The notes: generated by a model from the letters alone, not told the origin. A stretch of 64,000 nt of DNA from Candidatus Levyibacteriota bacterium (GCA_963790825.1 CAWBPM010000003.1:253681-317680); one strand, 5' to 3'; numbered from the stretch's first letter, positions 10,294-48,499 are shown. A program made the numbers and translations.

Positions 10294-10327
10294 ACACGAA
10301 AACAACTCACAGAATTCTTTAATCTCT

Positions 10328-12730
10328 TTACGATACTACTGTCTGTATATTGCCTGAGTCGTCGAGGGTCATTACGACATTATTTCCCCGCTTTATTTCG
10401 TCCCGCAATTCTTTTTGCGCGATAAGATCTTCTATTTTATCCTGTAAATAACGTCTCAAGGGACGGGCTCCAAACTCCGGATCATAACCTTCCTGAGAAA
10501 TTTTAGTAATAATTTTATCATCAAATGTAACTGCAATATCCTGCTCTTTCAGTTTTTCGGTTAAACTCTTAAGCATAAGACGGGCAATTGTCGCTACCTG
10601 ATCTTGGGATAATGATTTAAAAGTTACGACATCATCAAAACGGTTTAACAATTCCGGTTTAAAGATTCTGTTGCTTTGCAGATACTCCATCAGCCGGTGT
10701 TGAAATATTTTATCAATCTGAGTCCCTTTTTCGACTTCTTCCCGGATAAACTCAGCACCGGCATTAGAGGTAGCAATTATAATGGCATTAACAAATGAGA
10801 CTGTATGTCCCTTATTATCGGTAAGACGACCATCTTCAAGTACCTGAAGAAACAAATCTAAAATTCTGGGGTTTGCTTTTTCAAATTCATCCAGAAGAAC
10901 CAGGGAATCCGGATGGTCATGAATTTTATCGGTCAATTCGCCCCGTTCTTCTCCTTCACCGGGTGCCGCACCGAGAAGCCTTTTTACGCCTTCACTGTCC
11001 GAATATTCACTCATATCGAGGCGCACAATATGTTCCTGTCCGCCAAAATAGAGATCCGAGAGTACACGGGCTGTTTCGGTTTTACCAACTCCTGTCGGAC
11101 CTAAGAATAGAAATGAGACGGGTTTATTCGCACTTGCCAGCCCGGACCGAACACGGCGCATTGCCTCGGAGATTGCCGTGATGGCATCATCCTGACCAAT
11201 GATGCGCTCATGTAATTTTTCTTCAAGGTGGAGTAAGAGTTCTTTTTCCTGCGCCTTTGGAGCTGCGACATTCGCATGTGTTTTTTCTTCAAGAGTGCTT
11301 ATTACATCATCATCCGTTACAATATTCGACCTTTTCATTTTGTTCATAGTAACTGCAACTCGATTGGCCGAATCGGTAAGAAGCAGCACTGCGCTCCCGG
11401 GAAGATTCGCATCCTGTTCGTATCTGTCGGCAAAGTTAGCTGCCGCAATAACGCTTCGATATGTAAGGGAAACGCCATTTTTTTCTTCAATTTCCCCTGC
11501 TTTTTCAAAAAGCATCTGCAATGCTACGTCCTTTTCGGGCTCAAGAACTTGTATTATTTCGAATACTGATTTCATGGGGCTGCGCTCTAAATACGCTTTA
11601 TATGCACCGGGCGTCATTGTGGCAATAATCGGCATTCCTCCGTTTTTAAGGTAGGGAAGAAGTGCGCCTGAAAGATCCAGATTATACGATCCGGCTCCCA
11701 TGATGTTTTCAAACTGCGGAATATATAGAATAACGTTTCCGGCATGGGAAATTTCAGCAATAATATTTTGTAAGCGTACCTCCATATTTCCCCTATCTCC
11801 TGCTCCGGCAATAAGCGGTCCTACCATCAGCTCAAGTATTTTTTTATGATTTAAAGTGGAAGAAAGATAGTCGCCAAAACTGTCATACGCTAATGCTTCT
11901 ACCAGACTTTCTTTTCCCGCACCGATTTCGCCAACCAGAATAATATTATTATTTTCTTTTTTTGCCAGTGCCTCACAAATTTCCTGATATTCTCTGCTGC
12001 GTCCCACAATAAGAGCGCGTTTGTTTAGCGAATGGTAGGTAAAATCATCGGTGTATTGTTTGGTTTCAGGCGTCCAGCCGGACATTAACGATTCACCGAT
12101 TCCGTCGCCAAAAAAATGTACACGATAATCTTTTGCATGCTCTTCCTCCGGGTATTCCATTTGTGCCCAAAAGAGAATTTGCATCAGTTCTACGTCTTTT
12201 ATTTTTTTCCTAAAAAGCAATTTTGTTTTTTCTTCCGAAAGCAAAAGGTAGGAGACGAGACAGTCCATAGTCGTTATGTATTCCCCGTTTACACTTTTAG
12301 CAAGTTCGAAGCTATACTGAAGAATATCTTTTTTAGGAATATCAACAAGAGACAGTTCCCCTTTATCCAGACCGATTTTTTCCAGGATAAATAGTATTTG
12401 AGGATAGCGAAGAAGAGCCAGGAGAAATTTCTCAGATGTTGTTTCAGACAAATAAGCAGTCAAAACCGGCATTGTCGCAGAGCTGCCGACATCGGGTGAG
12501 TTGTTTTTCCCAACCGGAGTTTTCGGATGATACCTGTTAATTTTATAGCGGAAAAATGTTTCCGCCATGGCAAGAAGACATAGAAAAAAGATTGAAAATC
12601 TGGGGTATGAATGATTAGTAAGTCCATACAGAGTAAGTGAAGCAAAGAAAAATATTGCCAACAGCCTCACCGTTTTACCAATAGCCGAGTGGATTAACAA
12701 ATAAACATGAACGTACTCGTTAGAATTCAT
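10328..12730 (-). CDS. membrane-tethered Hsp100/Clp-family ATPase paralog; D1 module degenerate, D2 intact
   Basis: Two N-terminal hydrophobic helices; D1 Walker A is GEIGAGKES and Walker B position reads IPQFEN (no DE); D2 is canonical: FLGPTGVGKTETARVLS, LVLLDEFEKA, ATSNAG, GARPLRR. Confidence 0.75.
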   Translation of the reverse strand: MNSNEYVHVYLLIHSAIGKTVRLLAIFFFASLTLYGLTNHSYPRFSIFFLCLLAMAETFFRYKINRYHPKTPVGKNNSPDVGSSATMPVLTAYLSETTSEKFLLALLRYPQILFILEKIGLDKGELSLVDIPKKDILQYSFELAKSVNGEYITTMDCLVSYLLLSEEKTKLLFRKKIKDVELMQILFWAQMEYPEEEHAKDYRVHFFGDGIGESLMSGWTPETKQYTDDFTYHSLNKRALIVGRSREYQEICEALAKKENNNIILVGEIGAGKESLVEALAYDSFGDYLSSTLNHKKILELMVGPLIAGAGDRGNMEVRLQNIIAEISHAGNVILYIPQFENIMGAGSYNLDLSGALLPYLKNGGMPIIATMTPGAYKAYLERSPMKSVFEIIQVLEPEKDVALQMLFEKAGEIEEKNGVSLTYRSVIAAANFADRYEQDANLPGSAVLLLTDSANRVAVTMNKMKRSNIVTDDDVISTLEEKTHANVAAPKAQEKELLLHLEEKLHERIIGQDDAITAISEAMRRVRSGLASANKPVSFLFLGPTGVGKTETARVLSDLYFGGQEHIVRLDMSEYSDSEGVKRLLGAAPGEGEERGELTDKIHDHPDSLVLLDEFEKANPRILDLFLQVLEDGRLTDNKGHTVSFVNAIIIATSNAGAEFIREEVEKGTQIDKIFQHRLMEYLQSNRIFKPELLNRFDDVVTFKSLSQDQVATIARLMLKSLTEKLKEQDIAVTFDDKIITKISQEGYDPEFGARPLRRYLQDKIEDLIAQKELRDEIKRGNNVVMTLDDSGNIQTVVS

Positions 12731-12731
12731 A

Positions 12732-13124
12732 CTATTTAAATAATAGAAATATTGCCAATGCCGGCATTAATACAAACAAACTAATTACTAGAAATTCGCT
12801 AATCAACATTACTAAAAAAATAGTCAGTGTAAAGAGAATAAGTATTGTTTTTGCAAAAATTCCCATACCGATTGAGAAACCGACCAAACCTTTTCTATAT
12901 TCATTTTTTAGTGGCTTAAAAAAAGTGACAACCATCAGCTTTAGAGAGAATAGCTGGAGAAACGCACTGTTGAGCGACTGGAAATATGACAGCATCGTAA
13001 GCGGTGCTTCAATATACCAGAATTGTACGAGAATAAAAGGCAGGGTCGTATAATAGAAATTCATGAGCAGTATCTCTAGTCTAAAAACTTTTCCTCTAAA
13101 TTGCAAATGAGTATTATTTAGCAA
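12732..13124 (-). CDS. small polytopic membrane protein (3-4 TM), hypothetical
   Basis: 130-aa ORF almost entirely hydrophobic; 7-bp gap to upstream clpC-like gene and 1-bp gap to downstream Clp paralog. Confidence 0.4.
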   Translation of the reverse strand: MLNNTHLQFRGKVFRLEILLMNFYYTTLPFILVQFWYIEAPLTMLSYFQSLNSAFLQLFSLKLMVVTFFKPLKNEYRKGLVGFSIGMGIFAKTILILFTLTIFLVMLISEFLVISLFVLMPALAIFLLFK

Positions 13125-13131
13125 GCAAATA

Positions 13132-16041
13132 TTATTCCTGGGTTTCGTTTGGTAAACCGGCGGAAGAAGAAGTAAAGGTTGTGCCTGTTCCCGGAGGAGA
13201 CATTGGATAATTGGGAGTGGGCATGTTATTCATCGGATTTAGCATTCCCGACTCCTGTCCCATATCCTGACCAAACTGAGACATTGGCTGTGGAGTAACC
13301 CCATTTGGTATCTGAGGACTCCCATACGGAGGTAAAGGAGCTTGCGGGAACTCTTGGGACGGGCCGTATTGGTTATTTATTTCTGCGGGAGCGGAGTTCA
13401 TATACGGATTATTTACCGCCTGTGGATTTAGACCACTTGGGAACTGTTGATTAGGATTATACGGCTGATTAAAACCGGCCTGAGGAGGTAATACAGATGG
13501 AGAACCGGGCTGAGGTGGCTGAGTCATATTTGACGAGGGTGCGAATTGATTCTGCGAAGACATTGGTTCGCCCGCTTGCTGATTAGGTTCTGCTGCTTTT
13601 TCTTGACTACCAACCGCATCTGTATGGTTGGATTTAGTAAAGAAATATCCGCCCTTCGCCCCGTCAAAATCAATAAGTATCGCATCTCCGGGAAGAAACT
13701 TTTTTCCAATTATTTCAAGTGCAATTGGGTTTTCTATTCTCGTCTGAACCAGACGGCGAAGCGGTCTTGCACCGTACATAGGATCATACCCTTCATTTGC
13801 GAGTTCACGAAGAGCTGCATCTGTAATATCGACACTAAGTTGCTGCTCTGTAAGTAAACCGCTCGTTTTTTTAATGGCAAGTTTGGTAATACCTACCATA
13901 TCTTCTCTTCGTAAGGGCTTAAAAATAACGATGTCGTCAAAACGATTGAGAAGTTCCGGCCGGAAGAATTTATGCAGTTCCCCGCTTACCACTTCTGAAA
14001 GGTCCTTAAAATCTTTTGCGAGTTGTTCCGCTGTTTTCGGCGTAGGATTAGTTGTATCCTCCTCGCCTAATTTTTCAGTAATCAGGCTGCTGCCAATATT
14101 TGATGTACAGATGATAATCGTATTTTTAAATGAGATCGTATTGCCCTTGTTATCGGTCAGCCGGCCATCCTCTAAAATCTGCAGGAGAATGTTAAAGACA
14201 TCAGGATGCGCCTTTTCAACTTCGTCCAAAAGAACAATCGAGTACGGTTTTATTCTTACGGCTTCGGTTAATTGTCCACCTTCTTCATAGCCGACATACC
14301 CGGGGGGCGCACCAATCAGCTTGGCGACCTCATGCTTTTCCATGTATTCTGACATGTCGAGCCGAATCATTGCGCTTTCCTGACCGAAAAGAATCTCTGC
14401 TATAGTTTTGGCAAGTTCTGTTTTTCCCGTACCCGACGGACCTAAAAAGATGAATGACGCAATCGGCCTCTGTCCGCTTGCCAGTCCAATTCTCCCTCTC
14501 CTGACTGCCTCTGCCACTGCTTTTACTGCTTCCTCCTGATCGATAAGCCGCTCATGGATGCGATCTTCCAGTTTTAACAATTTTTGACTTTCATCCTCTG
14601 TCAATTTCGTGATCGGAATACCGGTCCAATTACTGACTACCTGTTCTATTTGCGATTTTTTTACCTCGTTTCCTGTTGTTTGCCCCTTTGCCTGCATCAT
14701 CTTCACATCTGCAGCAGCTTCGTCAATTAAATCAATTGCTTTATCGGGGAGAAAGCGTTCTCCAATATATTTTTTTGATAATTTAACCGCCTGAACCAAC
14801 GCGTCGTCGGGAATAGTTACCTTGTGAAAGTCTTCGTATTTCGACTTTAATACCTTAAGCATTTCGACTGCTACTTCTTCACTCGGCTCTTCACAAATTA
14901 TCGGCTGGAATCTTCTGGAAAATGCTTTATCTTTCTCAAAATATTTTCGGTATTCTGCTGTCGTCGTCGTACCGATTATCTGCAAGTGTCCTCTTGCCAA
15001 ATGCGGCTTAATAATATTTGATGCATCCATCGCGCCTCCCGTATCACCCGCTCCCATCACCGTGTGTATTTCGTCGATAAAAAGCAGTGTTTGTCCGCTG
15101 CTTGCCATGGCTTCACGAATAACAGAGCGCAACCGTTCCTCAAATTCTCCCCTGTGACTTGCGCCGGCTACCAAAGATGCTACGTCAAGCTGAATAATCC
15201 GCTTTCCCAATAGTTCCTTCGGCACTAATCCTTTCACAATATTTTGCGCCAGACCTTCAATAATTGCCGTTTTGCCAACTCCTGCTTCACCTATTATGAT
15301 CGGGTTATTTTTCGTTCTGCGGAGTAAGATATGAGCAAGTCTATCAATTTCCTTGTCCCGTCCGGCAATCGGATCAAGTTTACCCTCCCGAGCCTGTTGT
15401 GTCAGGTCTACCCCATATTCCTCAAGAACACTTTTTTTGGCCATTGTATAGGATTTATCTTTCGTTAATTTTTCTTCCACCTGCATTTTCCTAACACCTT
15501 GCTCTGCAAGTGAATTAACGCCGATACTCTGAGTTCCGGCAGAAAAAATTGCCAGCAGGACGTCCTCAGGAGCGATGAATCCGGCTCCGCGTTTTTTCGC
15601 TTCCAGATATGCACCTTCAAACACTTGTTTGGTATTTTGACTAAGCAGCGGTATACCGGGAAATCCGTCCGGAATTTCCCGACTTTGAATTTCCCGGGTA
15701 AGCTTCGCGACATCGACATTAAACTCTTCAAGAAGCTTATAGATTTCTTCATCAAAAAGTAATCCCAGAAGTATTTGGTCAACATCAATAAGCTGCTGGT
15801 GAATCCGCACCGATTCCTGCTGGGCGTGGGTTAGTACTTTTTGCGTACGGGAATCCAGATGCGACAGAGCGGACAAGTCTTCTCTTCGCGCCGGATCCAT
15901 GGCTGAATCAGCTATATTATTGTTATCAATAGGAGTCGCCTGCGGAGGCGGAGGTGTCCCCATATTTTGTGTATTTGTATTTTGTTGTGCTGGTGGGTTC
16001 TGATTTCCAGAACTCCTCTGATTGAATAAATTTCCAAGCAT
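13132..16041 (-). CDS. clpC: ClpC/ClpB-type Hsp100 chaperone with Q/N/P-rich N- and C-terminal extensions
   Basis: Clp N-domain repeats; D1 [15 protein letters not shown] / LLFIDEIHT; D2 [17 protein letters not shown] / [29 protein letters not shown] / GARPLRR; short D1-D2 linker (ClpC-like). About 160 aa Q/N/P-rich low-complexity C-tail. Confidence 0.85.
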
Positions 16042-16098
16042 ACTATTTCCTTATTTTATTCTGTATGGTTTTTACTGATTAGTCAAGCTCTCCAATTA

Positions 16099-19000
16099 TT
16101 ATTTTTTTGTTTCAGGCTCGTCTTCCGCTGACATCTCAAGAGAAGGCTTTGTTATTTTTTGTATAGTTATTAGTTCTTCTGTTTCATATCCTTCTTTCTT
16201 CAGGTTTTCCAGCACGTCTTTGGCTGCTTGTTCTTTTGCTTTCAAATACGCAATAATCTCATTTTGCGAGAATCCGCCAAGCAGCAGGAAAGGCAGGATA
16301 TTTGAAACTGCTTCCATGCCTGCTTTTACTTTTTCAGGTGCTGAGGCTGTCAATAACAGGATTATTTGCTCAATATTTTCGATTTCTTTTACCAACCAGG
16401 TTATTCTGTTTTGTATTACTCCGCCTGGTGCCTCAGGTATATCCATTTTGCTATAGTTTTCCTGCCATAGTTTTTTCACTGTTTCATAATCAGCGACATT
16501 TATTTGTTGCAGTTTATTAACAGAGGGGAAAGACCCTGCAATGTAGCTAAGCAAATACTTCTTTTCTTCTTCCACTTGTAGCCAAACTTCTTCCGCCAAC
16601 TGGTTCTTTTTTTCTTTTTCTGAAAATATTTGATTTTTTATTTTCAGCAAGGCATCTTTTCCTAATTTTTCCGGAAATTCGACTAAAATTGCCTGAGCAA
16701 GCAGATTGCCATTTTCTTTTTCAGCCTGCAGTCTGTTTTTGAGAGATATATATTTCTCTTTTCTTAAAGGATCACTTATTTCCTCAAGATACGTAATATG
16801 CATCAGAACTGTCTTAAGTGCTGAAAGCAGTAGTTCTTCGTCATCAGCGGTTCTTCCGGAAACCGTATGGGCTGCTGTTAAGAGAGAAGTCGCGAGCGGA
16901 TCGAAGGACTTACTTGCCTCAAGGAGTTGCTGTTTTAGATTGCCATACTTACTGCGAAGTTCGGACGAGGTCAAATTATCCGGACGCGATATTCGCTCTA
17001 ATACCTCCCGTACTTTGGCTATGTCTTCTTCTTTCCCGGATACTTGAGCAGGTTGGGATTCGTACCGGACAATATCTCGAAGCGTAGGAAGCGGTAGGTT
17101 GGTAAGCTCCAGCAGTTTTGTATTTACTTGAGGATATGTTAATGCTTTAAGGTTTGTGCCAACCGGAATAGAAGCACGCGCTATTTCTTGATCCGGACTT
17201 TCTATTTCCGAAGCGGTTGTCATATGCCCTACTTCAGAGGTGGTCGCTGTTTTTTCTTTTGCTTCGATTAATGTTTCTTCCTCGTTTGCGTTCTGTTCTA
17301 GATCTTCCAAAACCGTCTTTCCTGCCTGTTCTTTTGCCTTCAAATACGCGACAATTTCTGACTGGGAGAAGCCACCCATCAGAAGGAACGGCAGGACGTT
17401 TGCTACTTCCTGCATGCCGGCTGCTACCTTCTGCTGGTCGGTCGAAGAAAGTAGATCAATGGCTCTAGTTACTTTCTCCAAATCTGATTTTACCCAAGTT
17501 TTCCGATCCATTTGTCCTGTTTCTGCAGTTTGTGGAATAGACATATTCTTGTAGTTATCAGTCCACATAGACTTTACTGCTTCGTAGTCTTCAAGGCTTA
17601 CCTGCTGGATACGATTACTAGTTGGGAGATTGACAGAGGAGGAAGTTACCTGCTTTCCGGTTGTTTGTACGCCGCTTTGCGACATCAGAGAAAGAATATT
17701 TCCTGCCAGTTGGTCTCCTTTTGCCTGTGCATCCATGAGTTTCTGTTTCACTTTTTGTAGATCTGTTTTCTCGGTTTTACTGTTGACACCCAAGAGAGAC
17801 GTGGCAAGTTGATTGCCTTTCTTGCTTTCTTCTTCAAGTTTGGCTTTTATCCTGACATATTGCTGTCTATCTGCAACTGCAGGGATTGAGGATAGGGCAG
17901 AATTTACGATTTGAGAGAGAACTTGAGATATGACTTGTGTCTCTTTGGATACAGTTTGCTTATCTACCTCAGAAAGCAACGTAGTTGCCAACTCATTTCC
18001 TTTCGTACTTTCCTGCATTAACTGGTCTTTCAGTTTTTGTATATCTGAGGCATTCGTTGTTTTCTCAGTTGCAGAGAGAATAGTTGTTGCAAGCGTATTT
18101 CCCTGCCTGCTCTCTTTGAGAAGGGTTTCTTTCAGTATGTTTATCCGCTCCCGATCGGTTGTAGAGGTTACTACTTCTTGTGGATTAGCAATTTGCGTCA
18201 GTACGTTTTGCAAAGATGAGACGCTTGGCTGGGATAGGATATTTTGGCTAGTTGTTGCAGACTGCAGTGCAGTGAGTATTGATGTTGCCAGGACGTCTCC
18301 TGTCTGGCTTTGTTTAGTGAGTTCACTTCGCATCTTGGTATACTGGTCACGCTCCTGCGCATTACTCAATGCCTCGGGATTTTGCAGATTTCGCATTGCT
18401 TCTTGTAATTTGACTAACTCTGTGGACTTTTCTCGGGAGGAAGAATTCATCGATGTTTCAAATTTCGCAATATCCCGAAGTGTCGGAAGCGACAAGTTGG
18501 TAAGTGTCAGTATTTTCGTATCAACTAGAACAGGAGTCGAAGCTGTGGTTATGGTAGGCGTTTGGTACGCCTCTTCCTCGTCCGCTGTTCTTGAAATTGT
18601 CAAATGCTGAGGGACTGTGGTTGTTTCACGTTTTACCTCAACAGTTGTATCCTCTTCCTCATTCGTTGAGGAAATTAACTCTTCCAGTACTACTTTTCCT
18701 GCTTGTTCTTTTGCTTTAAGATAGGCAACAATCTCCGACTGGGAGAAGCCACCCATCATCAGGAACGGGAGAATATTTGATACTTCCCGCATACCCGCTG
18801 CTACCTTCTGCTGCTCGGTTGAGGAGAGGAGATCAATCGTTCGGGAAATATTCTCTAGGTCATTCTTAATCCAGGTTTTTCGATCTGTTTGTCCAGTCTC
18901 GATACTTTGTGGTACATCCATGTTTTTATAATTCTCGGTCCACATGGATTTAACTGCTTCATAATCCTCAAGATTTACTTGCTGTACCCGATTCGCAGTG

Positions 19001-22000
19001 GGCAGTGGAGTCGTAAGAGTACCGGCTTGTGTCTGTGTTTGGTATTGCTGTTGAAGCATAAGGCCTAGGATTTGGGCAGCATTCTTATCCCCTTTATCGC
19101 GGGCGTCCATGAGTCTTTGCTTTAACTTCTGCACATCGCTGGTTTGAGTTTTAGAATCAGTAGTTAAAGCTTGTCTATTAATTTCTGATAAGACAGAGGT
19201 CGCTAACCCATTTCCTTGTTTACTCTCTTTTGTTAATGTGTCTTTCAATTGTTGTATTCCTGCTGCACTTGTCGTTTCTTTAGTGGCTGAAAGAATTGAT
19301 GTAGCAAGTGTATTGCCTTGTTGACTTTCTTTTACCAAGGTTTCTTTTAGTGTTGATATTCGCTCGCGATCAACAGTTGAGGTAGTGACAGAGGCAGGAT
19401 TCGCAAGATGCTCCATTACTTGAGACATTACTTGCATATCTCTCGATGCGCTTTGTTTATCTACCTCAGACAGAAGAGATGTAGCAAGTGTATTGCCTTG
19501 TTTACTCTCTTTCACCAATTGATCTCGTACCTTCTCCATCTCTGAAGTACTGGTCGTCCTCTCCGTCGCTGAAAGAATTGATGTAGCAAGTGTATTGCCT
19601 TGTTTACTCTCTCTGACTAATGTCTCTTTCAAAGCCGTAATTCGCTGCCGATCGGTCGTTGAAGTTGTGATAGACTGGGGATTGGCTAATTGTTCAAGGA
19701 CGCTTGACATAACTTGCGTATCTTTGGATATACTTTGTCTATCCATCTCGGAGAGTAAGGTTGTGGCAAGCGTATTCCCTTTTTCGCTTTCTTTGATTAA
19801 TTGTTCTTTGACTTTTTGAATTTCAGTATTGTTAAGTGTTTTTTCTGACGAGGAGAGTAAAGTGGTTGCCAATGTATTATTTTTCTCTTTACTTTCCGAT
19901 ACTAATTTTTCTTTAAGAGTCGTTATCCTTTCCCGTTCCGTTCTCTCTGTTATTTTTTCAGGGGAGGCAAGCTCTGTAAGAAGCTGTGACAACTCTGTAT
20001 TTTGGACTTGCGTCGTGCTTGTAGCAGTTGAGAGAATAGTCGTTGCAAGCGTATTTCCTTTTTGGCTTTCTGATACTAATTCACCTCTGAGATTACTGTA
20101 TACTTCTTGATCTTTTGCAGTTTGGACTGCGGCAGGATTGGCAATTTGCCCAAGGACCTGTGAGAAGGCTTTCGTATCTGTTGAGACAGATTGCCTGTCC
20201 ATTTCAGACAGTATTGTTGTTGCAAGCGTATTGCTCTGTCTACTTTCTTTAACCAACTGGTCTCTTACTTTATCCATTTCAGATGTATTTGTTGTTTTCT
20301 CAGCTGCAGAGAGAATAGTTGTTGCAAGCGTATTTCCTTTTTCGCTTTCTTTGAGAAGCGTTTCTTTAAGCGCTGTAATCCGCTCCCGATCGGTTGTAGA
20401 CACAACTGCTGGATTGGCAATTTGCCCAAGGATCCGGGATAACTGCTGTGACTCCCGAGCCGACGTGTTATTTGAGGCAGTAAATGTATTATTTGCAGCA
20501 TTAAGAATAGTCGTCGCCAATACATTTCCCTTTTCACTTTCTTTGACTAAGTGTTCCCGAATTTCTTTATAATGCTCACGATCTCTCGTATTTGTCAGAA
20601 TTTCGGGATGGGCAATCTGCTCCAGAGACTGCTGCATAGTAGAAACTTCTTGTTGTTTCTCTTTGTTGGTCGATAATATGCTTGTTTCAAAACGTGCAAT
20701 ATCCTGCATTTTTGGCACACTCAGATTTGTTAAGCCTAACAGAACTATATCTGCTGGCAGTGGCTTTGCCAGTCCGGCAGTCGATGATTTTGTAATGTTA
20801 TTTTCTGTATTTATTGCTTCATTGGAACTGGCAGGTATTGCTTTTGCTAATCCCGCTCCCCGACCGGGCAAATTGAATTTCGGCGTAAAAGGCAACACGC
20901 GTCCCAGACCAAATGACGGAGCAGGACCGGGAGGAGCCGCCGGATTGACGGGAACAGGCGGGGCACCACCCAGGAAGGCACTACTTCTATTTCGGATATT
21001 TTTAATGACTGAATTTTCAGCATAGTTATAATTGGTCGCATAATCCAGGAAAATTTGTAAGAGAATCCATGGTACAATAATCACCATCCAGAGCATTAAA
21101 AGAGCAACTAAATATAAGGCAAATGTTTCGGGTAAATTAAGACTATTATTACAGGGCGTGGTAGCTGTATTATTGTAACAGACAGTTTGTCCCGGGCCAC
21201 CAAGAAGAATATTAATGGCAGTCGGAAAAATGTCATTAGTTGGATCCCAAATGTTTCCTGCAAGCGGCTTTAGTGGTTGGTCTAATGTGGCATAATTGCT
21301 GTAATCATGAGGAATAAAGTTTAGAGGTACACCAGCTCGCCATACTTGAACCAACCCTGCCAGGAAAATAGCAAAAAGCGGAGCATAGAGAGCCCAGCGG
21401 AAAAATTCGCCTATCCAGATTTTGGCTGTATTTCGCACAGGATAATATAGTAAAAGCAGAGGGAAAATAGGAGAAACAATAATAAAAAACCATAGAATAA
21501 TTCTGCGGATTATCAGAATAATCACCATCACGTAGTAAGTAAGTGCGGTTAATTTTACAAACAGTAATGAAACAAATGCGGATTCATTGTTCATGTCTCC
21601 CGTTAAGCGAAGTCCGATAAACTGTGTGTAATCCCATCCGACGTAAAGCAAATTTCCCTGCCATATTTCAGGATGCGCGATGTTCGTAGCGGTATCGGGG
21701 TTTTTGAGAAAAAATCCCTGGATAATATCGGTTATCTGGTAAATAAATTGAATGAGCGCATAAGAAAAAGTCACCAAAAGTATGACAGCGATAAAACGCG
21801 GAATAAAACGACGAACTCCTATACTTCTTCCCCGGGTAGAAATAATAATAAAAGCTGTAATTAAGACAAAGAGAACAAAAAACGCATAGACAATGTTACG
21901 AATTGTTACCCAGAAAGGAAGCAATGGATCGGTTCCGCTGGTGACGGAATTCAATTGTTCCCAGTCATAGTTCTGAAGCGACCAGTCAAGAAGAAGTCCG

Positions 22001-22542
22001 GACCTGGCAGCATTTTTTCCATCAAAAGTTACTTCCGAATCGGGGATAAAGATATTATCGGGAACAACATCTGTAGCGGCAGTGGCAACCGGTGCAGGAG
22101 CTACTGCGGCAGCTACGGTAAATAATAATCCACTTACTACATTTCCATTTCCGCCCGCATCACAGGGACTTACTGCAGGATTTGGGGTTAGCGCACATGC
22201 AGCTCCTACTGGAGAACCAACTGTAACTGAATAGGAGCAACTTGCAGATGCTACGCCTGCAATTGTCGTACAAGTATAACCAGCCGGCGGCGTGTAATTG
22301 ACAGCATACGTACCGGCATTAAGATTTGTTATTGTAAAACTAGCCTGTATAGCAGTGCCGGATTGAATTGGAGCAGGACCTGGAGGTAAAGTAGTAATAT
22401 TCCAGGTTCCTCCGACATTGGCTGCAGAGAAGTTTACCTGGATAGAACAATTATTCGTACAAAGAGCAGCAAATACGGAATGCGGAGAGAAATAAAGAAA
22501 AAATGCCAAGAAAAAGAAAAAAACGGACAGAAATTTTTTCAT
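16099..22542 (-). CDS. giant (2147 aa) secreted/polytopic membrane protein: signal peptide + Cys-containing ectodomain + ~6 TM helices (VirB6/TrbL-like topology) + ~1500-aa repetitive hydrophilic tail
   Basis: MKKFLSVFFFFLAFFLYFSPHSVFA signal. TM block VYAFFVLFVLITAFIIIS ... IILWFFIIVSPIFPLLLLYY ... LYLVALLMLWMVIIVPWILL. Tail has three ~350-450-aa super-repeats, each ending in ...DYE(A/T)VK..W..NY..M.IP......R.TW...........LL..........AGM.EV.N.LPFL..GGFSQ.EI.AYLKAKEQA.K, plus many ~50-90-aa GNTLAT(T/S)ILS units. Confidence 0.7.
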   Translation of the reverse strand: MKKFLSVFFFFLAFFLYFSPHSVFAALCTNNCSIQVNFSAANVGGTWNITTLPPGPAPIQSGTAIQASFTITNLNAGTYAVNYTPPAGYTCTTIAGVASASCSYSVTVGSPVGAACALTPNPAVSPCDAGGNGNVVSGLLFTVAAAVAPAPVATAATDVVPDNIFIPDSEVTFDGKNAARSGLLLDWSLQNYDWEQLNSVTSGTDPLLPFWVTIRNIVYAFFVLFVLITAFIIISTRGRSIGVRRFIPRFIAVILLVTFSYALIQFIYQITDIIQGFFLKNPDTATNIAHPEIWQGNLLYVGWDYTQFIGLRLTGDMNNESAFVSLLFVKLTALTYYVMVIILIIRRIILWFFIIVSPIFPLLLLYYPVRNTAKIWIGEFFRWALYAPLFAIFLAGLVQVWRAGVPLNFIPHDYSNYATLDQPLKPLAGNIWDPTNDIFPTAINILLGGPGQTVCYNNTATTPCNNSLNLPETFALYLVALLMLWMVIIVPWILLQIFLDYATNYNYAENSVIKNIRNRSSAFLGGAPPVPVNPAAPPGPAPSFGLGRVLPFTPKFNLPGRGAGLAKAIPASSNEAINTENNITKSSTAGLAKPLPADIVLLGLTNLSVPKMQDIARFETSILSTNKEKQQEVSTMQQSLEQIAHPEILTNTRDREHYKEIREHLVKESEKGNVLATTILNAANNTFTASNNTSARESQQLSRILGQIANPAVVSTTDRERITALKETLLKESEKGNTLATTILSAAEKTTNTSEMDKVRDQLVKESRQSNTLATTILSEMDRQSVSTDTKAFSQVLGQIANPAAVQTAKDQEVYSNLRGELVSESQKGNTLATTILSTATSTTQVQNTELSQLLTELASPEKITERTERERITTLKEKLVSESKEKNNTLATTLLSSSEKTLNNTEIQKVKEQLIKESEKGNTLATTLLSEMDRQSISKDTQVMSSVLEQLANPQSITTSTTDRQRITALKETLVRESKQGNTLATSILSATERTTSTSEMEKVRDQLVKESKQGNTLATSLLSEVDKQSASRDMQVMSQVMEHLANPASVTTSTVDRERISTLKETLVKESQQGNTLATSILSATKETTSAAGIQQLKDTLTKESKQGNGLATSVLSEINRQALTTDSKTQTSDVQKLKQRLMDARDKGDKNAAQILGLMLQQQYQTQTQAGTLTTPLPTANRVQQVNLEDYEAVKSMWTENYKNMDVPQSIETGQTDRKTWIKNDLENISRTIDLLSSTEQQKVAAGMREVSNILPFLMMGGFSQSEIVAYLKAKEQAGKVVLEELISSTNEEEDTTVEVKRETTTVPQHLTISRTADEEEAYQTPTITTASTPVLVDTKILTLTNLSLPTLRDIAKFETSMNSSSREKSTELVKLQEAMRNLQNPEALSNAQERDQYTKMRSELTKQSQTGDVLATSILTALQSATTSQNILSQPSVSSLQNVLTQIANPQEVVTSTTDRERINILKETLLKESRQGNTLATTILSATEKTTNASDIQKLKDQLMQESTKGNELATTLLSEVDKQTVSKETQVISQVLSQIVNSALSSIPAVADRQQYVRIKAKLEEESKKGNQLATSLLGVNSKTEKTDLQKVKQKLMDAQAKGDQLAGNILSLMSQSGVQTTGKQVTSSSVNLPTSNRIQQVSLEDYEAVKSMWTDNYKNMSIPQTAETGQMDRKTWVKSDLEKVTRAIDLLSSTDQQKVAAGMQEVANVLPFLLMGGFSQSEIVAYLKAKEQAGKTVLEDLEQNANEEETLIEAKEKTATTSEVGHMTTASEIESPDQEIARASIPVGTNLKALTYPQVNTKLLELTNLPLPTLRDIVRYESQPAQVSGKEEDIAKVREVLERISRPDNLTSSELRSKYGNLKQQLLEASKSFDPLATSLLTAAHTVSGRTADDEELLLSALKTVLMHITYLEEISDPLRKEKYISLKNRLQAEKENGNLLAQAILVEFPEKLGKDALLKIKNQIFSEKEKKNQLAEEVWLQVEEEKKYLLSYIAGSFPSVNKLQQINVADYETVKKLWQENYSKMDIPEAPGGVIQNRITWLVKEIENIEQIILLLTASAPEKVKAGMEAVSNILPFLLLGGFSQNEIIAYLKAKEQAAKDVLENLKKEGYETEELITIQKITKPSLEMSAEDEPETKK
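16240..20600 (-). repeat. intragenic tandem repeat region (protein-coding): three ~1.1-1.4-kb super-repeats plus ~150-280-bp sub-repeats
   Basis: DNA-level near-repeats: GGFSQ-module coding sequence at ~16245-16300, ~17330-17400, ~18705-18775; gcaagcgtatt(c/g)cc(t/c)t... units at ~18100, 19300, 19480, 19585, 19760, 20040, 20220, 20320. Confidence 0.7.
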
Positions 22543-22556
22543 AAGTTTTGCGTATA

Positions 22557-22856
22557 TTACGCACTAAATCCGGGAACATGTAAAATATCAACCAGTACAA
22601 CTTGTACGAAAACGTAACCTAAAATTGCAAATAATATGCCGATTACCGCGTATTTAATGTAGCTTTTCCCTTTATCCAAGGCTTCATGATCTCCTTGAGA
22701 ACTTAGAACAATGTATCCGCCATAAATTAAAAATAAGATTGCCAGACCGCCGATCATACTTAAGCCTATACCGTAAAATTTCTCTACCAGCTGAACCGGG
22801 TCTGTCGGTAAACAACCAAGATCGGTACTAACCGTATTAGGAGCACAAGTATCCAT
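22557..22856 (-). CDS. VirB2/TrbC-like (pilin-like) two-TM hairpin mini-protein, hypothetical
   Basis: 99 aa; ~25-aa hydrophilic N-terminus with 2 Cys, TM1 GIGLSMIGGLAILFLIYGGYIVL, short charged loop, TM2 YAVIGILFAILGYVFVQVVLV; 14 bp upstream of the giant gene. Confidence 0.45.
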   Translation of the reverse strand: MDTCAPNTVSTDLGCLPTDPVQLVEKFYGIGLSMIGGLAILFLIYGGYIVLSSQGDHEALDKGKSYIKYAVIGILFAILGYVFVQVVLVDILHVPGFSA

Positions 22857-22955: not shown

Positions 22956-24740
22956 TTAGTTAAATTTATACTTTTTGCCGTCTATATTCATAATAAAAGA
23001 TTGATTGGCAAGTATATGAGAATAAACAAAAACTATCTCCTGATTAGTCGGATCCAGTTGATAGGCTTTTTTTATTGCATCCAGAGCAGCTTGTTTGTCA
23101 TGCAGTTTAAGTTTAGTAAGTGCCAGAAGTTTCCACAGATCGGAAGAATCCGGTGAATCCGGATAATCCTTTACCGCTTCTTCCAAAAAGTCATTCGCTT
23201 TATTTGGGTCATCGTAATAAACCAAAATCGGTGCGTAATTACGATAAGTTAACAAATAATGCTTATGTTGTAAAACCAGCTGGTACTGCTTTGCATGAAG
23301 CGCCAATTCATAATACTTCTCTGCTTTTTGGAAATCTCCCATTCTCCCATATGTAGCTCCCATATTTTGCAAATTCAGCTCGTTTGGTCTTTGGGAAATA
23401 GATATAGTAAGATGTTTTAGCGCATCACTATATTTATTTATATTTAAATACTCAACTCCGAGGTCATTCTCAATATCAAAATTATCACTAATTAAAATAT
23501 CATAGTTATAAAGAGTAAAAACATCATGCCAATCATTATTTCTGATTATTGTTCTCACTGATAATGAGAGGACAATAATAATTGCAATAAAAACAATGAC
23601 TGACGCATTCATCTTTAGCTTATGAATAATTATCTGGCAAATGATCCCGAATATTCCCAGCAGTCCTACCAGCGGAAAGTAAAACCAGCGGTCTGCAACA
23701 GTCATATCGAGAGGGAAAATCTGAGCTATCATTAAAAATCCCAGGACGAGCCAGGCGGAGAAAAAAAAGAAAGGCTTGGAGAATTGTTTATGATGCTTTG
23801 CGGTATATATACCTACTAAAGTAATAAAAGCAATAAATGACAGATCTATGATGAGCGGGAGATAAAGGGTTGAAAAATGCAGAGAGGTTATTACCCATTG
23901 CTGATCAGTGGCAAGCGTTTTAGGAAAAAAGGACGTTTTGAGATAGTAAAACATGATCATTGGCATATTAAGCAAACGTTCAAACAAAGAGAGACTGGCT
24001 ATGGGAGTTACCGGTCGCGCTGATATATCCACTTGTCCAATAAAAATACGGATAAAAGCGTAGAGACTAATGGTAATAAAACTGCCAATTGAGAGTTTAC
24101 TTAGGTTATTTTTCAAAAAAAGAAAACTATAAATCAGAATCATGCAAACAAAAAGTATCCCTGTTTCTTTTGTGAGTAACGAAAGAAGTGCTAAAGAAAA
24201 AATAATTACAAGTTTTTTACCAGACAGGTTTTCGTTCATAGAAAGCAAGAGTGACAATGCTCCAAAGAGAAAGAAAAGAGGGTTGATCGTCTGTGCAATG
24301 TAAGATACCGCTTCGATGTTGATTGGATGAACCAGAAATACAATTGATAAAAAAAGGGTAATTCCCTTAGAAAAATACTTTTGAAAAAAAATAAAGATAA
24401 TAATTGTACAGATAATATGTAATACCAACTGAAGAAAATGGTAGATAAAAGGTGCATTAGCAAAAGCTGTACAGAGAATAGAGAAGTATAATTCGGGTAT
24501 TGGTCGATATTGTCCGCCGTTATTAAATAGATTATTCCCAAAAGCATAGAACAGATTTATATGATACGTATATAAATTTCTGATTATATACGTATAATCG
24601 TCCCAGACAAATCCGTTGAAAAGCATATTGAAGTAGACGATAAATCCGACGATTGCAATAATATGGATCGCTTTCTTTGTGGTTAGAGGAATAAAGAAAC
24701 GCTTTAGAGAAAACTCCTGTTGGTTGGGCGTATCCTGCAT
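22956..24740 (-). CDS. TMTC-like GT-C family glycosyltransferase (DUF1736-type polytopic N-domain) with C-terminal TPR repeats
   Basis: N-terminal FNMLFNGFVWDD motif and ~10 TM helices; C-terminal TPR-like repeats (ALKHLTISISQRPNELNLQNMGATYGRMGDFQKAEKYYELAL...). Confidence 0.6.
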   Translation of the reverse strand: MQDTPNQQEFSLKRFFIPLTTKKAIHIIAIVGFIVYFNMLFNGFVWDDYTYIIRNLYTYHINLFYAFGNNLFNNGGQYRPIPELYFSILCTAFANAPFIYHFLQLVLHIICTIIIFIFFQKYFSKGITLFLSIVFLVHPINIEAVSYIAQTINPLFFLFGALSLLLSMNENLSGKKLVIIFSLALLSLLTKETGILFVCMILIYSFLFLKNNLSKLSIGSFITISLYAFIRIFIGQVDISARPVTPIASLSLFERLLNMPMIMFYYLKTSFFPKTLATDQQWVITSLHFSTLYLPLIIDLSFIAFITLVGIYTAKHHKQFSKPFFFFSAWLVLGFLMIAQIFPLDMTVADRWFYFPLVGLLGIFGIICQIIIHKLKMNASVIVFIAIIIVLSLSVRTIIRNNDWHDVFTLYNYDILISDNFDIENDLGVEYLNINKYSDALKHLTISISQRPNELNLQNMGATYGRMGDFQKAEKYYELALHAKQYQLVLQHKHYLLTYRNYAPILVYYDDPNKANDFLEEAVKDYPDSPDSSDLWKLLALTKLKLHDKQAALDAIKKAYQLDPTNQEIVFVYSHILANQSFIMNIDGKKYKFN

Positions 24741-24809
24741 GTCATTATGCTAACATTAAAGATAAAGTTATTTCAATTACAATTTGCTTCTTAGAACCAG
24801 CCTCTTTTT

Positions 24810-26602
24810 TTAGTTAAATTTATACTTTTTGCCGTCTATATTCATAATAAAAGATTGATTGGCAAGTATATGAGAATAAACAAAAACTATCTCCTGATTA
24901 GTCGGATCCAGTTGATAGGCTTTTTTTATTGCGTCCAGGGCAGCTTGTTTGTCATGTAATTTAAGTTTAGTAAGCGCCAGAAATTCCCATAGATTCGAAG
25001 AACCTGGTGAATCCGGATAATCTTTTACCGCTTCTTCCAAAAAGTCATTTGCTTTATTTGGATTATCATAATAAACCAAAATCGGTGCGTAGTTACGATA
25101 AGTTAACATAGCATGTTTATGTGGTAAATATGCCCCATAATCATCCGCGTGAAGAGCCAGTTCATAGTATTTCTTTGCATTTTGTATATCTCCCAGCCGT
25201 GTATATACAATCCCAATATTTTGTAAATCTAGTTCATTCGATCTTTGGGAAACAGATAAAGTAAGATGCTTAAGCGCATCATTATATTTATTTATATATA
25301 AATACTCAATTCCAAGGTCATTCTCAATTTCGAAATTATCCTCTACCCTACTATCATGAGCAAAAAGCGTCATGCCGTTATACCAATTGGCGTTACGTAT
25401 TATTGTTCTGACAGAAAAAACAAGAAGAAGCACAATTATGCAGACTACAGCAATCTTAGTAAGCTTTCTGTTAGGAAAAATTGCCTCTTGTACTCCAATA
25501 CCAAGTACTCCAAGTAGTCCAACCATAGGGAAATAGAAATACCGATCGGCTACCGTCATATCCAAAGAAAAGAGTTGCGAATGCATAGTAAGTCCCGACA
25601 AAAACCAGAGGGAAAAGAAAAGAAAAATAGGGAAAGTCTTGCGATTCGATCTAAATGTGTATATTCCCAGAAGAATGAGAAGTACGAAAAAAAGCATATC
25701 GATGAGAAGCGGGATGTAAAAGGTTGATAAAGCAATATTTGTAATAACCCATTTTTGATCAATGGCCAGTTTTAAAGGAAAGAAGAAAGTTTTGAGATAA
25801 TAGAATACAACCATGGGGATATTGATCAGCCGCTGGGTAAACGTTAGGTTACTGATTGGATTATCGAATGTTACCTTTGCAAAGAAGACATGTCCTATGC
25901 CAAAACGCATCAGGAAATACAGGAGAGAGATTATTATTCCGAAAATTACGAAGGTAGACAATTTTTGTCTTTGAAACAAGACTCCATAGACTAAGATGAT
26001 AAATAGAAATAGAATACCGGTTTCTTTTGTCAGAAGACTGCATAATAATAGAAGCGGTATTAATAAGATGTATGATTTTTTATAGTGTATTTTCTACTTA
26101 ACAACAATGCTGAGATTCCGAAAAGAAAAAATAGAACGCTGTTAGCACCAATTATATATGAAACTGACTCAACTTGAATAGGATGAATAAGAAAAAGTAA
26201 GGAGAGAAACAACGCAAGATACCTGGAGAAGAACCTCTTAAATAGAAAATACACCAGTATCGTGTTTACGATATGCAGAAGGAGCTGCGTTATATGGTAG
26301 ATGAAAGAAGTGTCTTGGAATACTGAATACAATAGAGAAGTGTACAGGAAGTATATTGGGCGGTAAAACCCGGCAAAAGAACTATTAAACAAACTTGGGC
26401 CAAATATTGTTGAAAGATTAATTGAATGAACTTGCGGGTTGTTAAGAATATAAGTTATATCGTCCCAGACAAATCCGTTGAAAAGCATATTGAAGTAGAC
26501 GATAAATCCGACGATTGCAATAATATGGATCGCTTTCTTTGTGGTTAGAGGAATAAAGAAACGCTTTAGAGAAAATTCCTGTTGGTTAGACGTATCCTGC
26601 AT
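24810..26602 (-). CDS. second TMTC-like GT-C/TPR paralog, split into 26060..26602 and 24810..25979 by a 1-nt frame disruption in a T6/A6 run (26076..26081)
   Basis: N-terminal 50 aa and C-terminal ~95 aa nearly identical to the upstream paralog (DNA near-identical at 24598-24770 vs 26458-26630 and 22950-23075 vs 24812-24937). Adding one A restores ...TIKKSYILLIPLLLLCSLLTKETGILF..., colinear with copy 1. Confidence 0.55.
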
Positions 26603-26652: not shown

Positions 26653-27561
26653 TTAGAACCAGCCTCTTCCTTTTTTCCCTTCCTCAGAAAATTCTTCAAG
26701 CAGTTCTCTTTGTCTCCTGGTTAAATTTTTTGGTACTGTTACTTTTAGCTTAACGTACTGGTCTCCCCGTCCCGATCCCCGGACGTGAGGAACACCTTTT
26801 CCGCTTAAGCGAACGAGTGTGTTTGGCTGAGTCCCTGCGGGAATTTTAATCTTTACTTCGCCGTCGATAGTCGGAATGTTTGTTTCCCCGCCTAGCGCCG
26901 CATCAACGAAGGCAATGTCTTTTTCAACAACAATATCCGATCCCTCGCGGTGGAAAAGGGGATCCAAAGTAACCTCGACAACAATATCATATTCACCAAA
27001 ACGAATTCTTGAACCGCTATCAACTCCTGCCGGGATTTTTATTCTTTGTTTTTTGCCACTAATCGTAACTTCTTTTTCTACTCCATGTACCGCATCGGAG
27101 AAACTGAGTCTGATTTGGTAAGCTGTCCTCCTTGCAGCTCTGCCGAAAGGTGATGCGCCGCCGAAAAACTGTTCAAAAATATCGAAAGGATCCGAGAATC
27201 CGCCGAAATCAAAATCCGCACCGCCGCCATTCGTAGAATAGGTATAGGTAAACGGTCCGTATCTGCCTCCCTGCTGACCAAAACCGCCAAACGGCCCGCC
27301 CTGAGCTCCGCCGAAGGGCCCCTGACCTCCTGCGCCTTCAAATGCAGTGTGTCCCAGCTGGTCATATTGCTGCCTTTTTTGTTCACTGCCCAGCACCTCG
27401 TAGGCCTTATTAATTTCTTTAAATTTTTCCTCGGCTTCTTTGCTTTTATTCCGGTCCGGATGATACTCTAAAGCCAGCTTTCGATACGCCTTTTTGATTT
27501 CGTCAACCGATGCAGTTTTCGAAACACCTAAAATGTCATAATAATCACGTGATTGCGGCAT
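26653..27561 (-). CDS. dnaJ: DnaJ-class co-chaperone without zinc-finger domain (CbpA/type II-like)
   Basis: J domain [32 protein letters not shown] with HPD; G/F-rich region; two C-terminal beta domains; 302 aa. Confidence 0.85.
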
Positions 27562-27607
27562 AATTGTTTTCTATTATAGCAAAAGAAGATAGTAGGTGCT
27601 TAGGATT

Positions 27608-27916
27608 TCATTTAATTCTACCTAGAGGCACTATTAAAACCGGCTTCTTATTTTTATCTTGCTTATCTTCGTTGTGGTAGTATGCTCTATAACGGCGCCC
27701 TTCAGGATCATCTCTATATGGAATATCTTCATGCCAAAAACTACCGGTTGTTTCAATTTCTTCTCTTGCTATAAAATGGTCCCTGTTTAAAATACCCAGA
27801 TCTGCAGGAACTTTAATTACTTTTTCTCTAATTCCAATATTAAATACCGGCGTATTTTCTGTGGGGAGAGATTCTATTTTGAATTGTAATATTTGCGGAG
27901 AATCGACTTCCGTCAT
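27608..27916 (-). CDS. hypothetical protein between dnaK and dnaJ
   Basis: 102-aa ORF; start ATG (27914-27916) sits 3 nt from the corrected dnaK stop; no recognisable domain. Confidence 0.4.
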
Positions 27917-29874: not shown

Positions 29875-29878
29875 AATT

Positions 29879-30379: not shown

Positions 30380-30395
30380 ATTTATTATATAATTT

Positions 30396-48488: not shown

Positions 48489-48499
48489 ATTTTTATTCG

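Follow-up and report, generated by a model that had tools for sequence, protein, structure and literature searches.

A stretch of 64,000 nucleotides from a Candidatus Levyibacteriota bacterium (GCA_963790825.1, CAWBPM010000003.1:253681-317680), referred to herein as the window, contains five consecutive open reading frames (ORFs) on its minus strand, running from position 22856 down to 10328 and specifying proteins of 99, 2147, 969, 130, and 800 amino acids (aa). [quoted passage not shown] The superfamilies of all these components are already known, as are extended VirB6 proteins and VirB2-like pilins of Patescibacteria. What we report herein as new is a VirB6-fold protein in a class where VirB6 has been described as scarce, its conserved pairing with an atypical Hsp100, a repeat shared by these two proteins, and a membrane-anchored pseudo-unfoldase paralogue.

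The five ORFs are separated by gaps of 14, 57, 7, and 1 bp. An earlier note on this DNA had given coordinates that agree exactly with ours for all five, and its gaps are likewise reproduced, except that the 7 bp between the ClpC-like and small TM genes become 67 bp if the latter begins at ATG 13064. Both of its candidate start codons are plausible: TTG 13124, with an AGGA 7 nucleotides upstream, yields 130 aa, and ATG 13064, favoured by gene calling on an identical contig and by a family median of about 108-109 aa, yields 110 aa. The sequence is compatible with co-transcription of the five genes. No terminator-like site was found in the four intergenic gaps, but this is uninformative, as the promoter and terminator scan counts in the window equal the shuffled background. 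A feature on which the earlier note had not remarked is that the pilin/giant/Clp block sits inside an hrcA-grpE-dnaK-dnaJ heat-shock cluster. A search of the window for the HrcA operator CIRCE (controlling inverted repeat of chaperone expression), allowing three mismatches, found none; thus heat-shock co-regulation cannot be supported by this route.

Table 1. Features of the locus and its upstream flank in the window (coordinates counted from the first nucleotide of the window)
Feature	Position	Strand	Evidence
VirB2-like T4SS pilin, 99 aa	22557..22856	-	Pfam PF18895, two TM helices
Giant aa 1-205: signal-peptide-like N-terminus and variable 6-Cys ectodomain	21928..22542	-	hydropathy, Cys positions
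Giant aa 206-505: VirB6/TrbL-like helical membrane block	21028..21927	-	
Giant aa 506-603: Pro/Gly-rich linker past the last hydrophobic helix	20734..21027	-	sequence; low pLDDT at model end
Giant tail module 1, aa 604-1334: boxA, ~94-aa repeats, C-terminal domain	18541..20733	-	motif map, repeat alignment, family consensus
Giant tail module 2, aa 1335-1794: second module copy	17161..18540	-	boxA aa 1345, C-domain aa 1723
Giant tail module 3, aa 1795-2147: third copy, diverged the most	16102..17160	-	
ClpC-like stand-alone Hsp100, 969 aa: Q/N/P-rich N-tail, Clp_N, D1, D2, Q/P/N-rich C-tail	13132..16041	-	
Small polytopic membrane protein, 130 aa (TTG 13124) or 110 aa (ATG 13064)	12732..13124	-	
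TM-Clp, membrane-anchored Clp paralogue, 800 aa	10328..12730	-	Pfam AAA_2, ClpB_D2-small
Heat-shock context: hrcA 30396-31127, grpE 29879-30379, dnaK 27913-29874, 102-aa ORF, dnaJ 26653-27561	26653..31127	-	translations
Duplicated PMT_2/TPR glycosyltransferase insertion between dnaJ and pilin gene	22956..26602	-	Pfam

Related loci were collected by scanning one genome per species, giving 80 loci with 10-kb flanks, and their gene order was read with tblastn and ORF clustering; the homology searches returned their best 80-150 matches, all from this lineage (Levybacterales). The 99-aa protein is a VirB2-like pilin, as had been suspected. Its score against Pfam PF18895 (T4SS_pilin) is 27.1 bits (E 4.6e-6, aa 27-86), a narrow margin over the gathering cutoff of 26.6, and against the NCBIfam Mbov_0395 pilin-like family of a mycoplasma integrative and conjugative element, it is 29.9 bits, under the cutoff of 40. 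Two TM helices (aa 32-50 and 71-89) are connected by a short Lys-rich basic loop, SSQGDHEALDKGKSYIKY, and the N-terminal tail contains Cys. In 66 loci, the gene next to the pilin gene on its downstream side is the VirB6-like one, at a median gap of 4 bp. Some genomes have a second, extended pilin type as well, made up of 150-470-aa proteins with a T4SS_pilin domain at the C-terminal end and encoded divergently upstream of hrcA (family f24 and L053:1971-3389, minus strand; long "PIL" ORFs in L030, L047, L056, L065, and L077).

The giant has the anatomy that the earlier note ascribed to it, each part being upheld by hydropathy, a Cys map, and an AlphaFold model. A hydrophobic N-terminus precedes an ectodomain of ~180 aa with six Cys (28, 32, 91, 102, 116, and 127); this region (aa 1-205) is variable across the family and was modelled by AlphaFold2 with a predicted local distance difference test score (pLDDT) below 50. 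Five long hydrophobic helices then follow (207-235, 243-278, 316-365, 367-404, and 471-504), with two Cys in one loop, and after them a hydrophilic, Cys-free tail of ~1590 aa. The membrane block, modelled from a 26-sequence alignment, reached a pLDDT of 80-90, and when this model was compared with the PDB by Foldseek, the top eight matches were all chains of TrwI from R388. Against the Pfam family PF04610 (TrbL/VirB6), the same block scored 19.9-21.3 bits, under the cutoff of 25.9. PF04610 matches 8 of 26 members of the VirB6-like family at E<=0.01 (best 2e-5), TrbL is the sole family that recurs across them, and a few database homologues carry a precomputed PF04610 match. A profile of the family found no significant match among PDB sequences; fold comparison alone worked. 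Thus, the VirB6/TrbL likeness claimed earlier is borne out in fold and topology and missed in the PF04610 gathering score: to judge from the model, the membrane block has the VirB6 fold, though it lies below the sequence-profile threshold. The giant fits the published definition of extended VirB6 proteins, i.e. at least five hydrophobic helices plus a large hydrophilic C-proximal domain (PMC12857230), and is itself an extended VirB6, in which a VirB6-fold block is joined to a long helical-repeat tail.

Ordinary members of the VirB6-like family are typically 700-980 aa long, and their tail is a single module. The module starts with a boxA, "LTNLSVP", continues with a few repeats of ~94 aa bearing "IANP..." and "GNxLA" motifs, and ends with a C-domain, "LPFLLIGGFSQ..AYLKAK". 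In the window giant, this module occurs three times, with boxA at aa 604, 1345, and 1811, the C-domain at 1264, 1723, and 2089, and 14 GNxLA motifs. The C-domain of module 1 reads "GGFSQ...AYLKAKEQA", that of module 2 is ~85% identical to it as compared by eye, and module 3 is the ancestral-type single module of ordinary family members. The tail is variable in length: values of 678-2147 aa are seen among the 75 syntenic homologues, and a global search reached 2790 aa. The closest relative of the window locus in a tree of ClpC cores has a VirB6-like protein of 827 aa, and the giant size therefore represents a recent, lineage-specific expansion. Giantism is accordingly not family-wide, and the 2147 aa came about when the tail module was recently triplicated. 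An all-helical structure is predicted for this module (pLDDT 79), with no specific match among PDB folds. The "AKxEAGK[ST]" strings in the C-domain of the tail were considered as a P-loop and rejected, as the stretch that contains them is predicted to form one long helix.

The 969-aa protein is a double-ring Clp/Hsp100 protein in the general sense, with the Pfam domains Clp_N, AAA, AAA_lid_9, AAA_2, and ClpB_D2-small. Throughout its family (62 members), the Walker A and B motifs of both rings (D1 and D2) and the D2 pore loop, GYVGY, are intact. The [ILV]G[FL] loop that docks to ClpP is found in 0 of the 62, the window protein having "KLGEED" where Bacillus subtilis ClpC has "VGF", and an alignment to 1qvr shows that an M-domain of ~120 aa is missing. 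The D1-small motif and the D2 Walker A are 94 aa apart, compared with ~146 aa in B. subtilis ClpC and ~205 aa in ClpB. Scores against the NCBIfam models for ClpB (TIGR03346; 887 bits, cutoff 1232) and ClpV (TIGR03345; 696 bits, cutoff 885) fell short, and the ClpA cutoff was also missed. With neither an M-domain nor a ClpP loop, the protein is neither a ClpC nor a ClpB in the strict sense, and the label "ClpC-type" that it had been given earlier fails. Its intact ATPase sites and D2 pore loop, combined with the lack of these two elements, suggest a stand-alone motor like ClpV or ClpIb.

Both ends of the ClpC-like proteins have a peculiar composition. Aa 1-60 comprise a conserved start, "M[FL]GNLFNQ", and a Q/N/P-rich low-complexity stretch, and aa 800-969 of the window protein form a prion-like tail of 170 aa that is rich in Q, P, and N, at a place where other lineages have VirB6-type repeats. 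In three loci (L025:9685-13295, L058:14013-17335, and L066:4052-7389), the N-D1 and D2 parts are encoded by separate genes that overlap by 4 bp, i.e. a double-ring Hsp100 is encoded there as two polypeptides. The view that these loci are devoid of a ClpC-like gene was rejected on account of the split genes.

The small TM protein has no match in Pfam or NCBIfam. Its family (41 members) is the constant upstream partner of TM-Clp, with a median gap of 1 bp in 28 loci. TM-Clp begins with a two-helix hairpin whose hydropathy is moderate in the window copy (Kyte-Doolittle peaks of 1.65 and 1.34), yet the hairpin is kept in 33 of 34 family members, and the membrane tether proposed earlier for this 800-aa protein stands. 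Its D1 ring is degenerate, with GAGKES as the Walker A and IPQFE at the Walker B position; across the family, the GK of D1 is mostly followed by E/K rather than T/S, and "IPxFEN" replaces hhhhDE. There is no aromatic residue in the pore loop "AGAGDRG" or in its D2 counterpart "PGEGEERG", and the ClpP-docking loop occurs in 0 of the 34. The Walker A and B motifs of D2 are intact. Judged by these motifs, the D1 ring appears catalytically dead and TM-Clp is not a canonical unfoldase; with a dead D1 and no aromatic pore loops, it presumably cannot thread substrates in the canonical manner. Thus, of the two unfoldases previously envisaged, the ClpC-like protein keeps its ATPase sites and the D2 pore Tyr, whereas TM-Clp retains neither a live D1 nor pore aromatics. 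The latter represents an undescribed variant of Hsp100, and databases label such proteins as ordinary ClpA/ClpC.

The consensus gene order in the related loci is hrcA-grpE-dnaK-dnaJ-pilin-VirB6-like-ClpC-like-(secreted peptidase)-small TM-TM-Clp-...-nusA, and most of the 80 have hrcA-grpE-dnaK-dnaJ, in this order, on the upstream side of the pilin gene. Whether Clp genes adjoin the giant gene in other species had been set beforehand as a check on the proposed coupling, and they do: among the 67 informative loci, i.e. those with enough downstream sequence, each from a different species, a ClpC-like gene follows the VirB6-like gene in 65 (54 immediately, 8 with one extra gene in between, and 3 as split N-D1/D2 genes), with a median gap of 47.5 bp. 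The two exceptions, L015 and L017, are paralogous loci in which the pilin gene is absent too. The triplet of pilin, VirB6-like, and ClpC-like genes stays intact where dnaKJ lie elsewhere (L025, L039, L058, L066, L072, and L075). In 45 of 61 loci, the small-TM/TM-Clp pair follows further downstream with no change of strand, and in one sub-clade it is relocated and unlinked; in many genomes, genes for S8, M4, or other peptidases, or dnaJ, lie between the triplet and the pair. The five genes thus comprise two linked modules, pilin-VirB6-like-ClpC-like and small TM-TM-Clp, which are contiguous in the window genome, and the single five-gene unit drawn in the earlier note does not extend to the family.

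In L015 and L017, a VirB6-like paralogue of ~1125 aa (~9940-13320) without pilin or Clp neighbours is flanked downstream by two S8 peptidase genes and IF2, and upstream by genes for alanyl-tRNA synthetase and a Baseplate_J-like protein. Many records of Levybacteria-type metagenome-assembled genomes (L003, L004, L007, and others) are titled "uncultured Gammaproteobacteria bacterium", evidently a mislabel, to judge by the genes that they contain and by the resemblance that they bear to named Levybacteria.

A second line of evidence links the VirB6-like protein to the Hsp100. Fourteen ClpC-like proteins (1125-1513 aa) carry C-terminal extensions of 277-636 aa whose homology to VirB6-like tails spans 180-420 aa in BLASTP (E 1e-21 to 1e-44). 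A hidden Markov model (HMM) of the tail repeat found two to five repeats in each of the 14 and matched all 75 VirB6-like proteins, and it had no match in the other ORFs of the loci (~1100 ORFs). An exhaustive HMMER search of 1.84 billion representative proteins, using a repeat profile built from the window giant, returned 138 proteins, of which 90 have a VirB6-like block, 43 are tail fragments, 2 have a Clp core, and 3 are spurious; the repeat therefore occurs in only two architectures, VirB6-like and Clp fusion. A word-indexed homology search with a ClpC-fusion extension yielded just two fragment matches. The 14 fusions were also considered as independent events, a view that was rejected, as all of them form one clade; they go back to a single event and have been kept in frame across a deep lineage of 14 species. 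None of the fusions has a clear TM segment. VirB6-like tails are essentially Cys-free, and Cys are found in the ecto-regions. Because Cys mark those regions and not the tails, and the fusion partner is a soluble cytoplasmic ATPase, the tail is probably cytoplasmic.

None of VirB4, VirD4, VirB11, and ClpP was seen in the window, whose ORF translations were inspected (a subset also against Pfam and NCBIfam), or in ~10 kb past its left edge, and VirB4, VirD4, and VirB11 are absent within ±10 kb of the 80 related loci. What had been said of the window, that no T4SS ATPase is nearby, therefore extends well beyond it. T6SS (type VI secretion system) genes are likewise absent from the window. A published survey reported VirB4 in 2417 of 3035 Patescibacteria genomes (PMC12102498, Quinonero-Coronel et al. 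2025); in Microgenomatia, VirB4 is usually near dnaA, and VirB6 homologues are "scarce", "suggesting extreme sequence divergence". That survey looked only around virB4. The Levybacteria rows of its Table S1 covered here comprise 44 genomes, 20 of them VirB4-positive and 24 negative; for ABY1 and Paceibacteria, in adjacent rows, nearly every entry is positive. As to assemblies bearing the present locus, the rows covered list L014 and L022 as "No" and L027 as "Yes". In Levybacteria that are VirB4-positive, two pilins, TrsD, and VirB4 are encoded at a separate locus, in which no VirB6 was detected. For the VirB6 that is missing from Microgenomatia and highly divergent, the present locus offers a strong candidate, in a different genomic neighbourhood.

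These observations bear on an explanation that we consider somewhat unlikely, namely that the locus holds orphan T4SS parts beside heat-shock genes. The VirB6-like protein would then be the divergent VirB6, and the pilin an extra pilin, of the known patescibacterial T4SS with its VirB4/TrsD near the origin; the ClpC-like protein would be a general disaggregase, the adjacency would be inherited, and the fusion would stem from one local duplication. Consistent with it are the wide occurrence of VirB4 alongside scarce VirB6 in Microgenomatia (PMC12102498), the pilin-TrsD-VirB4 loci of Levybacteria, the embedding of the block in a heat-shock cluster with nusA syntenic downstream, the monophyly of the fusion, and the origin of all loci from one order-level group. 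It fits less well with the presence of the locus in the VirB4-negative L014 and L022, and with the high share of negatives in the covered Levybacteria rows compared with neighbouring classes. Also against it are the cohesion of the triplet where dnaKJ lie elsewhere, the in-frame maintenance of the fusion in its 14-species clade, and the confinement of the repeat to two protein types. As regards the disaggregase, ClpB needs its M-domain to cooperate with DnaK, and the ClpC-like protein, which has no M-domain, is hence not a canonical heat-shock disaggregase.

We give an even chance to a different reading, in which a T4SS-derived module, consisting of the pilin and the extended VirB6, is functionally coupled to a dedicated, ClpP-independent Hsp100, with the repeat tail as the docking scaffold. 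The coupling is supported by a gene order that is kept beyond the heat-shock context and by a repeat that is exclusive to the two proteins. The Clp-powered conduit imagined in the earlier note is something that we infer, and it has gained one strong new support in the shared tail repeat. By analogy with R388 TrwI, the VirB6-like protein may form an oligomeric membrane platform that handles the pilin. Its Cys-free repeat tail, if in the cytoplasm, would serve for docking and keep the ClpC-like hexamer at the membrane, through either repeat-repeat association or a common partner, and the Hsp100 would provide ATP-driven pulling or unfolding there. As to what the motor does, we infer that its tasks could include extracting or recycling the subunits of pilin and platform, remodelling the platform, or feeding unfolded protein into the VirB6 channel; such work is usually assigned to VirB4 or VirD4. 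The small TM protein and TM-Clp would most likely act as a membrane-bound, ATP-binding regulator or tether of the active Hsp100, and the triplicated tail of the window genome would offer more docking sites with the same function.

Several points weigh against such a coupling. All the evidence for it is comparative. The 80 loci represent one order-level lineage in which the heat-shock genes and nusA are syntenic too, so that part of the conservation is inherited gene order, and a clpB-like gene beside dnaK-dnaJ is a natural heat-shock arrangement. The repeat fusion is one evolutionary event, and the ClpC-like protein of the window itself has no such fusion, its C-tail being merely Q/P/N-rich. 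In 57 of the 62 ClpC-like proteins, the D1 pore loop is ASHRG, with His replacing Tyr. Extended VirB6 tails elsewhere are regarded as extracytoplasmic, e.g. the C-domain of F-plasmid TraG as periplasmic, and the cytoplasmic location of the present tail is no more than probable. Incompleteness of metagenome-assembled genomes weakens the "VirB4-negative" calls, and the VirB6-like protein may simply serve the separate TrsD-VirB4 system in trans.

A bolder form of the coupling would be a T4SS-derived pilus or translocon that is independent of VirB4 and VirD4, energised by an Hsp100 ring that is recruited to the membrane and docks on the VirB6 tail repeats, and provided with the pseudo-unfoldase paralogue as a membrane tether; we regard this as doubtful. 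If true, a Clp-type unfoldase would take the place of the signature T4SS ATPases, and the secretion or pilus machine would belong to a new class.

The tail could also be a substrate instead of a scaffold. In this rather improbable alternative, the ClpC-like protein, aided by TM-Clp, would unfold, remodel, or extract the VirB6-like protein as quality control, akin to the action of ClpV on the contracted T6SS sheath. The same synteny evidence applies, the Hsp100 is stand-alone and has no ClpP loop, as is the case for ClpV, and the membrane anchor puts TM-Clp at the right place. Moreover, the tail is highly variable in length and grows by duplication, as expected of a handle. Nonetheless, repeats that are covalently fused to their own unfoldase suit docking or oligomerisation better, no degron-like terminal motif was identified, and TM-Clp, with no pore aromatics, would be of no help in threading.

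Peptidase genes suggest yet another possibility. A gene for a secreted peptidase follows the ClpC-like gene in 25 loci, with a median gap of 5 bp, and none does so in the window. Forty such ORFs belong to three unrelated classes, S8 subtilase, M4 thermolysin, and a "HEVLGH" type, which alternate at this site (e.g. L013:15455-17287, L046:16213-18096, and L074:15760-17841). All 40 have an SdrD_B-like domain, and 20 match a strict pattern for a shared C-terminal tag with four Cys, "C..D..C..GQKNLQ.C.L.C", a possible signal for sorting or anchoring. Conceivably, the pilin/VirB6-like pair and the Clp proteins serve the export or maturation of these tagged surface proteases. The frequent position of their genes next to the ClpC-like gene would agree with this, and so would the VirB6-like paralogues of L015 and L017, which are followed by two S8 peptidase genes in loci with no pilin or Clp. 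We nevertheless find it very improbable: the peptidases have N-terminal signal anchors and are hence presumably Sec substrates, they are missing from the window and from the fusion clade, and the alternation of three unrelated families suggests a permissive insertion site.

The known patescibacterial T4SS, whose VirB4 forms a clade within the mating-pair formation (MPF) type FATA (PMC12102498), resembles the present locus in its PF18895 VirB2-like pilins and VirB6-type polytopic protein, and in being chromosomal, in a monoderm bacterium from the candidate phyla radiation (CPR), with no relaxase nearby. The two differ in that VirB4, TrsD, VirB3, and VirB8-like parts of the former cluster near dnaA, whereas none of these lies within ±10 kb here, the neighbours being dnaKJ and Clp genes; the present VirB6-like protein is below the profile thresholds of that survey. 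Extended VirB6 proteins such as the Rickettsiales Rvh paralogues, F-plasmid TraG, and the 700-900-aa VirB6 of MPF-FA (PMC12857230) have the same block of at least five helices and a large hydrophilic C-proximal domain. Here, however, the tail consists of a family-specific helical repeat of ~94 aa and a conserved C-domain, is shared with an Hsp100, and ranges from ~200 to >2200 aa via module duplication. The role of the hydrophilic tails of extended VirB6 proteins is an acknowledged question, and an Hsp100 with the same repeat offers a candidate partner.

Among Hsp100 proteins, ClpV (TssH) is a ClpB-related, ClpP-independent motor that is encoded with and dedicated to a secretion apparatus and recruited via a structural component. 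ClpV keeps its M-domain and sits in T6SS loci, whereas the ClpC-like protein has no M-domain and its partner would be a T4SS-type VirB6. Firmicutes ClpC needs an adaptor (MecA or McsB) for targeting or activation; MecA binds the N- and M-domains of ClpC, and ClpC feeds ClpP. As a working analogy, the tail repeats could play the role of such an adaptor, although the ClpC-like protein has neither an M-domain nor a ClpP loop, and it is a membrane protein that contains the putative adaptor. ClpIb of Actinomycetota (PMC10149685) is likewise a double-ring protein between ClpB and ClpC, with intact ATPase motifs and no ClpP-docking motif, and has been inferred to be an independent unfoldase. In contrast to the present protein, ClpI has an M-domain of ClpC length and no reported link to membranes or secretion, and it belongs to another phylum.

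No description of Clp coupling to T4SS parts was found in the searchable literature, and Clp goes unmentioned in PMC12102498 and PMC12857230; as far as this search reaches, the system is not a described one, as the earlier note had suggested. A coupling that is physical would connect a Clp/Hsp100 protein to T4SS-type components for the first time, in parallel to ClpV in the T6SS, and where genomes are VirB4-negative, it could point to a secretion or pilus platform whose motor has been swapped. Few systems have been shown to be essential for the epibiotic life of Patescibacteria, and T4SS genes are one of them, the case at hand being Southlakia epibionticum (Wang et al. 2023, as cited in PMC12857230).

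Other features of the window were noted in passing. Only the window genome has the PMT_2/TPR insertion that parts dnaJ from the pilin gene; at the other loci, these two genes lie a median of 51 bp apart. Of the two glycosyltransferase copies, the upstream one is broken into an N-part (26060-26602) and a C-part (24810-25979) and is 86-96% identical in DNA to the intact one. A third AAA+ gene (8530-10293, plus strand) encodes a 587-aa single-ring ATPase resembling Cdc48/PAN/FtsH; it runs convergently towards the TM-Clp gene, the two stop codons being 34 bp apart, and has no counterpart in the 80 related loci. At 55-64 kb, the window is AT-richer (GC 0.33-0.36) and looks mobile or variable; an rve-type integrase of an insertion sequence-like element (58070-59338, minus strand) is found there, followed by a 143-aa ORF without a Pfam match (57639-58070, minus strand). 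Finally, an ATP-citrate-lyase-like gene pair (46695-49675, minus strand), combining Citrate_bind and ATP-citrate synthase ATP-grasp domains in one protein with CoA-ligase and citrate synthase C-domains in the other, is unexpected for a metabolically reduced CPR genome.

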